Assembly: GCA_049890075.1 (NCBI GenBank)
Contig: JBMHCE010000055.1
Location: 9,435 to 73,434, forward strand
Reading direction: 5' to 3'
Source: Chitinophagales bacterium
Lineage (GTDB): Bacteria; Bacteroidota; Bacteroidia; Chitinophagales; UBA8649
Length of the DNA stretch: 64,000 nucleotides
Shown here: positions 20,350-21,317 of the stretch, one piece after another
Position numbering within the stretch: position 1 is the stretch's first letter
Layout of the letters: every line of letters starts with the position of its first letter
Notes under the pieces: generated by a model
The model's input: only the letters and a program-made list of their open reading frames with translations
The model's database searches: none
What the model was told of the DNA's origin: nothing
Made by a program: the position numbers and the translations under genes

Positions 20350-21291
20350 TTACTTTCGCTTCGTACGATTGTACAGCGTAATATCCGGCGAGAACAAAAA
20401 CTTGAGGATCACACCTGTCCAACTTTTATAACTGTGCAGATTGTTGTAGTATTCCGGAGCAATTTTGCGCAACATCGGAAGACGGCTTCCCGGTATGTTT
20501 GGGAAATCGTGATGCTCATTGTGATAGCCAACATTATATGTCACCAAGTTGAGTGGGCCATAATAAGAGTACGTTTCCTGTCCCTCATGAAATACATAAT
20601 GCTCTGAGATAAAGTGCCCAGAAGTTGGATGTAGACTACCAGCTAAGACTAAGGAAAGCAGAAGATATCCTAAACCTGGTAGGCCTGCAAAATAGATGAT
20701 CGGAATCATGACCATAACCTGAAATACGATGTTCATGATAACCCACTTGTCAAAAGGCACCTTCTTTACAAACATTGGTCGTAAAGCGTAAAAGAAGATT
20801 TGGTGCATAAACCACAATACCTTACCGATGAAGCCTCTAAAAAAGTTAGCCTCACTTGGCAAGGGAATATCACTATCTACTCCATCTTTCCCTTGTTCCC
20901 AATGATGCTCATGATGATAAAATTTGAAACCCATTGCGTAAGGAACAACAATTGGAATATTCGCTACATATGCTAAGTAATTGTTTAGCTCTGGCTTTTT
21001 AAACGCCAGATTATGTGTAATCTCATGGATGGCCAGAAAGAGGGCATGAGAAATTGTTGCACCCACTAAATACGTCAGGGCAAGAAAAACATACCAAGGC
21101 ACATTGTATTGGCCAAGAAAAATTGCCACGCCAACCTGAAGACTAACCAAAATCAATACTGAATATTTCATCCAAGGATTGATTCCGTAGAGCTTTTTGA
21201 TCTCGGGATGATCTTTTAAAATAGCCCGTCTCCTTCCAATGTGTGGTTCCGGCTCTTCAGTCCAATAATAATCTGTTCGTTTTGCACCCAT
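20350..21291 (-). CDS. Sphingolipid delta-4 desaturase / C4-hydroxylase (DEGS/DES1-like membrane desaturase)
   Basis: N-terminal Lipid_DES-like segment [27 protein letters not shown]; His boxes HEITH, [45 protein letters not shown]. Confidence 0.88.
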   Translation of the reverse strand: [313 protein letters not shown]

Positions 21292-21309
21292 AATTGTATG
21301 ATTACCATA

Positions 21310-21317
21310 CAAAGGTA
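21310..21317 (-). promoter_or_regulatory. Bacteroidota sigma70 -7 element (TACCTTTG) for the desaturase
   Basis: Exact TAnnTTTG match 18 bp upstream of ATG 21291. Confidence 0.7.

Follow-up and report, generated by a model that had tools for sequence, protein, structure and literature searches.

A DEGS-type desaturase gene of a small marine Saprospirales-like bacterium and its putative place in bacterial ceramide synthesis

The window analysed here is a stretch of 64,000 nucleotides from a Chitinophagales bacterium (assembly GCA_049890075.1, contig JBMHCE010000055.1, positions 9,435 to 73,434 of the forward strand). The host is a small marine Saprospirales-like bacterium whose genome (G000, 2.0 Mb) is 97% complete. 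We studied one gene of the window, the product of which belongs to the DEGS family together with the eukaryotic sphingolipid delta-4 desaturases. A preliminary description of this DNA had reported a membrane protein of 313 amino acids with three His boxes at positions 20350 to 21317, and the same protein was recovered from an open reading frame (ORF) on the minus strand. The coordinates hold; the strand had been left unstated, and the end at 21317 takes in a promoter box. The gene and the parts of its protein are:

20350..21291, minus strand: DEGS-type coding sequence of 313 amino acids, stop included, from ORF and Pfam; ATG at 21291, stop codon at 20350-20352
21172..21282, minus strand: Lipid_DES N-terminal domain (PF08557), residues 4-40; Pfam 64.0 bits, cut-off 23, profile positions 1-37 of 37
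20428..21096, minus strand: FA_desaturase domain (PF00487), residues 66-288; Pfam 87.2 bits, cut-off 29.7
21013..21027, minus strand: His box 1, HEITH, residues 89-93; H89 and H93 invariant in 20/20 aligned sequences
20902..20916, minus strand: His box 2, HHEHH, residues 126-130; H126, H129 and H130 invariant in 20/20 aligned sequences
20509..20523, minus strand: His box 3, HNEHH, residues 257-261; H257, H260 and H261 invariant in 20/20 aligned sequences
20596..20634, minus strand: further block of conserved histidines; H221 and H231 invariant, H226 nearly invariant

An alternative, longer frame with a TTG start reaches 21312. Both Pfam domains score above their cut-offs, which bears out the DEGS-family motifs recognised in the preliminary description by the profile search that it had proposed. 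The alignment used for the His boxes holds 20 sequences including three named eukaryotes (nematode and choanoflagellate DEGS among them), and all eight His-box histidines of the window protein are invariant across it, in the pattern HxxxH, HxxHH, HxxHH. Hydrophobic stretches lie at residues 40-64, 67-88 and 181-220 (Kyte-Doolittle >=1.6, sliding window of 19). The FA_desaturase fold and the His boxes are shared with bacterial acyl-lipid desaturases of the DesA/DesB type, which, unlike the window protein, have no Lipid_DES domain. Other desaturase and hydroxylase equivalogs of NCBIfam give weak matches that all fall well short of the respective cut-offs (DesB scores 30.5 bits where 500 would be needed, DesA 20.2 bits). 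Judged by its sequence, the window gene is an intact, genuine and conserved bacterial member of the DEGS family.

Selection was measured on five congeneric genomes, namely the window and loci L098, L099, L100 and L101 (L015 and L016 duplicate two of these). The ten distinct pairs gave ratios of non-synonymous to synonymous divergence (dN/dS) of 0.007-0.028 at a synonymous divergence (dS) of 0.47-2.4, with 68-144 synonymous against 5-14 non-synonymous differences. The desaturase gene is under strong purifying selection. In another genome, a Lipid_DES match (G199:C21:45104-45202) is interrupted by an in-frame TAA and has no more than 48 amino acids of open frame; it is possibly a disrupted copy.

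A word-indexed search of 5.8 billion proteins returned 6355 matches at E<=0.001. Both Pfam domains are present in 120/120 of the matches listed (of the 6355), and the names among the matches listed are Saprospiraceae, Chitinophagales, Bacteroidota or 'sphingolipid delta-4 desaturase', a label already used by some annotation pipelines. Of 401 genomes sampled from the phylum, 41 have a Lipid_DES match. Among 41 relatives of the host, with small genomes of 1.6-3.0 Mb, the desaturase occurs in 18; it is present in 5/5 other genomes of the genus and 14/15 other genomes of the family. In a species-level collection with one genome per species, at least 585 places in several phyla encode a relative, and all locus-level counts given below refer to the best 80 of these. 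The best 80 comprise Saprospiraceae, Aureispira (with the desaturase at L025, L028, L029 and L037), Chitinophagales, Cyclobacteriaceae, Reichenbachiellaceae, Balneolaceae, Ignavibacteria and Mucilaginibacter; Myxococcota, Legionella, Acidobacteriota, Pirellulaceae, Bacteriovoracaceae and others are also included. With this wide bacterial distribution the desaturase is no isolated import, and the isolated eukaryote-type gene of the preliminary description has to be replaced by a large bacterial clade. Viral contigs were also scanned with the family alignment, and none of the three pattern matches encodes a relative. Locus L049, titled Rickettsiales bacterium, holds a copy inside the Cytophagales part of the clade with a gene like that for serine palmitoyltransferase (SPT) nearby; a wrongly assigned contig or a transfer of the gene may account for this.

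The relation to the eukaryotic enzymes was examined by clustering and by phylogeny. In a library clustered at 50% identity, the window protein matches its own cluster at 68% identity and the next ones at 53-43%; named members of the next clusters are from nematodes, a choanoflagellate, a chytrid, an ascomycete, a basidiomycete, a green alga, Palpitomonas and Chromera, together with mammalian DES2. Identity to animal, choanoflagellate and fungal DEGS is 45-53%. The tree was built from 80 rows (32 of these 80 without a name), picked from the 211 of a first FastTree, and was rooted on a second bacterial DEGS clade as an assumed root. This outgroup (Mucilaginibacter, Flavisolibacter, Acidobacteriota, Pirellulaceae, Bacteriovoracaceae) is of the same family, is separate (100/99) and 40-45% identical to the window protein, and has members beside Spt and reductase genes (L079, L075, L086). 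The window protein falls in a 100/100 clade of Bacteroidota, Ignavibacteriota and Balneolota. Under the assumed root, the sister of that clade (94/86) is a group with fungi, an alga and Palpitomonas, the Myxococcota (100/100) are sister (98/89) to animals, choanoflagellate and Chromera, and Legionella is the first branch. The ten named eukaryotes form two groups in the free tree; a split origin of eukaryotic DEGS was not adopted, as the approximately unbiased (AU) test leaves their monophyly unrejected (p = 0.109).

Grouping with ordinary acyl-lipid desaturases had been named beforehand as an outcome that would count against the DEGS assignment, and the window protein instead groups with eukaryotic DEGS in the same tree. 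With eukaryotic DEGS1/DES1 it shares the layout of Lipid_DES plus FA_desaturase and the three His boxes. A Met-Gly start shared with DEGS1, also put forward in the preliminary description, proved to be confined to the genus and not conserved in the bacterial clade, where other members start with MTT, MST, MSQ etc. Mammalian DEGS2/DES2 is of the same family and forms a cluster in the tree, but it lies in the animal clade and not in the group closest to the window protein. A recent transfer from one eukaryotic lineage into the genus is excluded by the tree.

Genes of sphingolipid synthesis recur beside the desaturase in its relatives. Within 6 kb of the desaturase an SPT-like match was found in 13/80 loci, a reductase-like match in 11/80, and one or the other in 17/80. 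The neighbour scan covered the four nearest ORFs of 25 of the 80 loci, and lipid genes lie at most two ORFs from the desaturase in nine of the 25. Two lipid clusters from Cytophagales were annotated in full:

L041:6932-12882: Cytophagales lipid cluster
L051:2963-12704: Cytophagales lipid cluster

Their order is Spt, reductase, GNAT, enoyl-reductase-like SDR, FabA-like protein, ketoacyl synthase and a small ACP-like ORF, then DEGS, CDP-alcohol phosphatidyltransferase, PLD-like protein, DUF3108 and GT4. Some loci of this cluster type have a second FA_desaturase added. In L079 the order is FA_hydroxylase, Spt, a protein of 380 amino acids, DEGS and reductase, the 380-residue protein being homologous to the Cytophagales GNAT (E = 1e-33). 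In Legionella gratiana and L. parisiensis (L065, L073), DEGS stands beside FA_hydroxylase, short-chain dehydrogenase, glycosyltransferases, CDP-alcohol phosphatidyltransferase and a 30%-identical SPT-like gene; judged by this content, an intracellular bacterium here appears to carry a set of sphingolipid genes.

Co-occurrence was counted in genomes that are related to each other and are thus non-independent samples. Among the 41 relatives an SPT-like gene (E<=1e-90) is present in 18, as is DEGS, and 17 have both; G410 has the SPT-like gene without DEGS. In the other families of the order, with 25 genomes covered, DEGS and the SPT-like gene occur in the same three genomes and are both absent from 22. 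Within the same order or class, a match to NF047600, the SerpalmtaseCFB family, was found in 8/13 DEGS-positive and 11/86 DEGS-negative genomes. A phylum-wide count with NF047600 (E<=1e-130) was discarded: 310/401 genomes match, which leaves little power outside the order.

In the genome of the host itself, the corresponding genes are found outside the window:

G000:C32:8294-11949 (locus L003): set of three genes, for a reductase, an SPT-like protein and a protein of 441 amino acids

The genome has eight matches to PF00155, of which one alone, C32:9400-10611, is of the AONS type. Its product is the SPT-like protein of the set and has SerpalmtaseCFB (NF047600) as its best NCBIfam match with 497 bits (Kbl 378, BioF 367). 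Against solved structures it scores 395 bits to Sphingobacterium SPT (3a2b/8guh), about 250 to Kbl, 226 to 28eh, a cysteate-C-fatty acyltransferase, and 201 to 7u7h, which we take to be Alistipes SulA. A genome devoid of long-chain-base synthesis, named in the preliminary description as a finding that would tell against it, is thus not what we encountered.

The reductase belongs to the epimerase family PF01370 (112.9 bits) and adjoins the SPT-like gene upstream in divergent orientation; the reductases of the DEGS clusters find their best match of this genome in it, at 26-28% identity. The 441-residue protein is encoded directly downstream of the SPT-like gene, belongs to no Pfam or NCBIfam family and has 20 homologues alone among the 5.8 billion proteins. 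Its AlphaFold model (pLDDT 84, pTM 0.85) matches N-myristoyltransferases and tandem GNATs (Foldseek E ~1e-9, TM 0.45-0.53), and a feature search gave GNAT clusters as a lead. The predicted fold fits an N-acyltransferase for the long-chain base, and the protein may represent a bacterial ceramide synthase of a new kind. Its gene is lineage-specific (13/15 family genomes), and we rejected it as a general DEGS partner, since it occurs in 2/400 other genomes of the phylum, both without DEGS. PF13444 and PF13480 were tried as ceramide synthase markers and gave one weak match each, elsewhere in the genome and uninformative.

With genes for an epimerase-family reductase and a protein of predicted N-acyltransferase fold on either side of the SPT-like gene, the set resembles the bacterial Spt-bCerS-CerR genes of Caulobacter and others; CerR is described as NDUFA9-like in the available excerpt of PMC11087976. 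The upstream pathway would here be of the bacterial type (Spt, GNAT, epimerase-type reductase), as opposed to CerS/KDSR in eukaryotes. The genome also has two FA_hydroxylase genes, one of which shares 48% identity with the hydroxylase found in the L079 operon, and three more FA_desaturase genes besides the one studied (together at C37:64969, C30:58476, C1:56664, C16:2966 and C42:4624). Lipid-modifying oxygenases are many for a genome of 2.0 Mb. For cysteate synthase, the capnine enzyme which we take to be of the TIGR03844 family, no candidate was found in this 97%-complete genome. The TIGR03844 model also detects threonine synthase-like proteins in 11/14 control genomes and none here; the genome may lack threonine synthase.

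The surroundings of the desaturase in the window contain the following features:

21310..21317, minus strand: TACCTTTG, a match to the -7 box TAnnTTTG by motif search, 19 nucleotides 5' of the ATG
21310..21358, minus strand: non-coding conserved block of about 49 nucleotides including the -7 box, from the alignment of congeneric genomes
21431-21438: TATTTTTG, own box of the divergent histidine kinase gene
21443-23470, plus strand: PAS/HATPase histidine kinase, divergent from the desaturase; also a neighbour in L016
19238..20230, minus strand: accA (PF03255, 468 bits), 119 bp downstream of the desaturase on the same strand

TACCTTTG matches TAnnTTTG, the consensus of the -7 box of Bacteroidota promoters; the promoter match given in the preliminary description is present. 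The TANNTTTG motif is under-represented in the window (26 seen against 54.2 expected from shuffles), so that the copy 5' of the desaturase is no trivial chance match and has a putative promoter role. The final G of the box is retained in 2/5 congeneric genomes, and the other three have TACCTTTA. Between the divergent desaturase and histidine kinase genes, the block of about 49 nucleotides shows hardly any change in an alignment of four congeneric genomes, although synonymous sites in the desaturase gene are near saturation, and it may be a shared operator of the two genes.

On the other side, the spacer of 119 bp between the desaturase and accA has no TANNTTTG on the gene strand and no terminator-like site on the minus strand, which makes co-transcription of the two genes possible. 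One congeneric genome has an extra, oppositely oriented gene for an outer-membrane channel (Phenol_MetA_deg, L016:7013-7816) between them, so the two form no obligatory operon. The preliminary description was right in placing accA downstream on the same strand in the window, but accA does not stand as a general context: it was a neighbour of the desaturase in 1/25 loci scanned (L016, same genus). It has no part in the sphingolipid function. The desaturase is covered at >=99% identity by contigs of RNA libraries made from seawater (X1-X3 belong to one study, X5 to a second). These contigs were discounted as evidence of transcription, as they also span the divergent intergenic region and the neighbours, and as carried-over DNA is indistinguishable from RNA at the level of contigs.

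From its family and its partner genes, the most likely role of the enzyme is to modify a ceramide made by the bacterium itself, at C4 of the base. The case for a sphingolipid context of the desaturase is strong; its substrate, the C4 position, desaturation over hydroxylation and the electron donor are what we infer. In the proposed mechanism, a dihydroceramide-type lipid would be made by the SPT-like enzyme, the N-acyltransferase of tandem-GNAT fold and the CerR-like ketoreductase of the epimerase family. The desaturase would be a membrane-bound, di-iron and oxygen-dependent enzyme of DEGS/DES1 type acting on the long-chain base of this lipid, and would yield a ceramide whose base has a 4,5 double bond. 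Cytochrome b5 supplies electrons to eukaryotic DEGS1. Here the donor would not be cytochrome b5, as none is encoded, so the electron supply must differ; a donor of ferredoxin or flavodoxin type is assumed. To the specific claim of a sphingolipid delta-4 desaturase acting on the bacterium's own dihydroceramide-type lipid we give about an even chance.

Several observations weigh against this reading. The literature search found no biochemical evidence for any bacterial DEGS member, and no PDB chain matches the window protein at E<=0.01, hence there is no solved structure of the family to compare. The SPT-like protein stays with its 497 bits below the NF047600 equivalog cut-off of 640. The desaturase is unlinked to the spt cluster in this genome (contig C55 against C32). 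The 441-residue protein has no BLASTP similarity to the GNAT of L041 or L079 and is a candidate by fold and position alone, and tblastn (E<=1e-4) found no homologue in the genome to the GNAT encoded by the Cytophagales and L079 clusters. Cytochrome b5 (PF00173) is not encoded in the 97%-complete genome, although this is a property of the partner and no criterion for the sequence family. Among the relatives, G412, a family member 93% complete, has DEGS without an SPT-like gene, and 5/13 DEGS-positive genomes of the same order or class have no SerpalmtaseCFB match at E<=1e-130. Desaturase and C4-hydroxylase are, moreover, inseparable by sequence alone.

This last point leads to an alternative that keeps family and pathway and makes the enzyme a C4-hydroxylase, or bifunctional like mammalian DES2, giving phytoceramide-type lipids. 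Mammalian DES2 is a bifunctional desaturase and C4-monooxygenase, and its cluster lies in the same family tree, which favours such an activity; the sequence features examined do not separate the two activities. On the other side, hydroxylation may already be covered by the two FA_hydroxylase genes of the genome, one of them resembling that of the L079 operon; this argument is weak, as a hydroxylase like that of L079 may act on the acyl chain. We consider the alternative rather unlikely. A more distant role, in which another membrane lipid is modified (glycerolipid acyl chains, amino-acid lipids or ether lipids) and the sphingolipid association is indirect, would agree with the position of the gene next to accA of fatty-acid synthesis while spt is elsewhere, with the five DEGS-positive genomes without a strong SPT match, and with the three further FA_desaturase genes, which point to active lipid remodelling. 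It is hard to reconcile with a Lipid_DES domain and a clade that are specific to DEGS, with a physical linkage to Spt, reductase and GNAT genes that recurs in different phyla, with the near-perfect co-occurrence of DEGS and SPT-like genes in the order, and with the rarity of accA as a neighbour, and we regard it as decidedly unlikely.

The desaturase could also act on the capnoid base of sulfonolipids (N-acyl capnines) and give unsaturated sulfonolipids of the flavocristamide type, an option raised in the preliminary description. Sulfonolipids are made by Bacteroidota, and some members of the clade are from Cyclobacteriaceae. Lipids with the capnine base of flavocristamide A have a base fragment of m/z 348.2214 according to the available part of PMC10501047, and by our own arithmetic this corresponds to saturated capnine minus 2 H. 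The option is improbable for this genome, which has no cysteate synthase match and whose AONS-family enzyme is, by the bit scores given above, closer to SPT than to 28eh or 7u7h. Scarcely any weight remains for the view that the gene was recently imported from a eukaryote, contaminates the assembly or is decaying. The identity of 45-53% to eukaryotic DEGS would be in its favour, but it is contradicted by the position of the gene inside a 73.7-kb contig among bacterial genes (accA, dapA-type, BamD-like, histidine kinase), by its conservation throughout the genus and in nearly all of the family, by a dN/dS of about 0.01, and by a tree in which the bacterial clade is monophyletic and nested in no single eukaryotic lineage.

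No paper on a bacterial DEGS homologue was found in the full-text literature, from which most subscription journals are outside coverage. The 15 papers found to name PF08557 or Lipid_DES are all on eukaryotes, going by their titles and abstracts, and the available excerpts of PMC11334938, PMC9278070, PMC10191378 and PMC11211663 give no information about bacterial DEGS. According to the accessible part of PMC7956469, Aureispira marina is rich in ceramide. In the portion of PMC11087976 at hand, Spt is taken as the sole step common to the bacterial and eukaryotic sphingolipid pathways. The DEGS family is a second eukaryote-type enzyme that is common in several bacterial phyla and often built into spt clusters.

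A broader picture can be drawn, which we regard as speculative and, taken as a whole, doubtful. The FCB group (Bacteroidota, Ignavibacteriota, Balneolota) would have an old, vertically kept DEGS clade as sister to the fungal/algal-type eukaryotes, and a myxobacterial clade would be sister to the animal/choanoflagellate/alveolate group, so that the eukaryotic ceramide desaturase would have bacterial roots or would have been exchanged more than once. Free-living marine Saprospirales would make true 4-unsaturated ceramides by a hybrid pathway with a previously undescribed ceramide synthase resembling N-myristoyltransferase.

The window gene itself is one ordinary member of a widespread and old bacterial branch of the family. 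Should these enzymes prove active, unsaturated or C4-hydroxylated ceramides in seawater and soil could stem from bacteria, which would bear on the use of ceramides as biomarkers, on bacterial mimicry of host signalling lipids and on the origin of the eukaryotic sphingolipid pathway.

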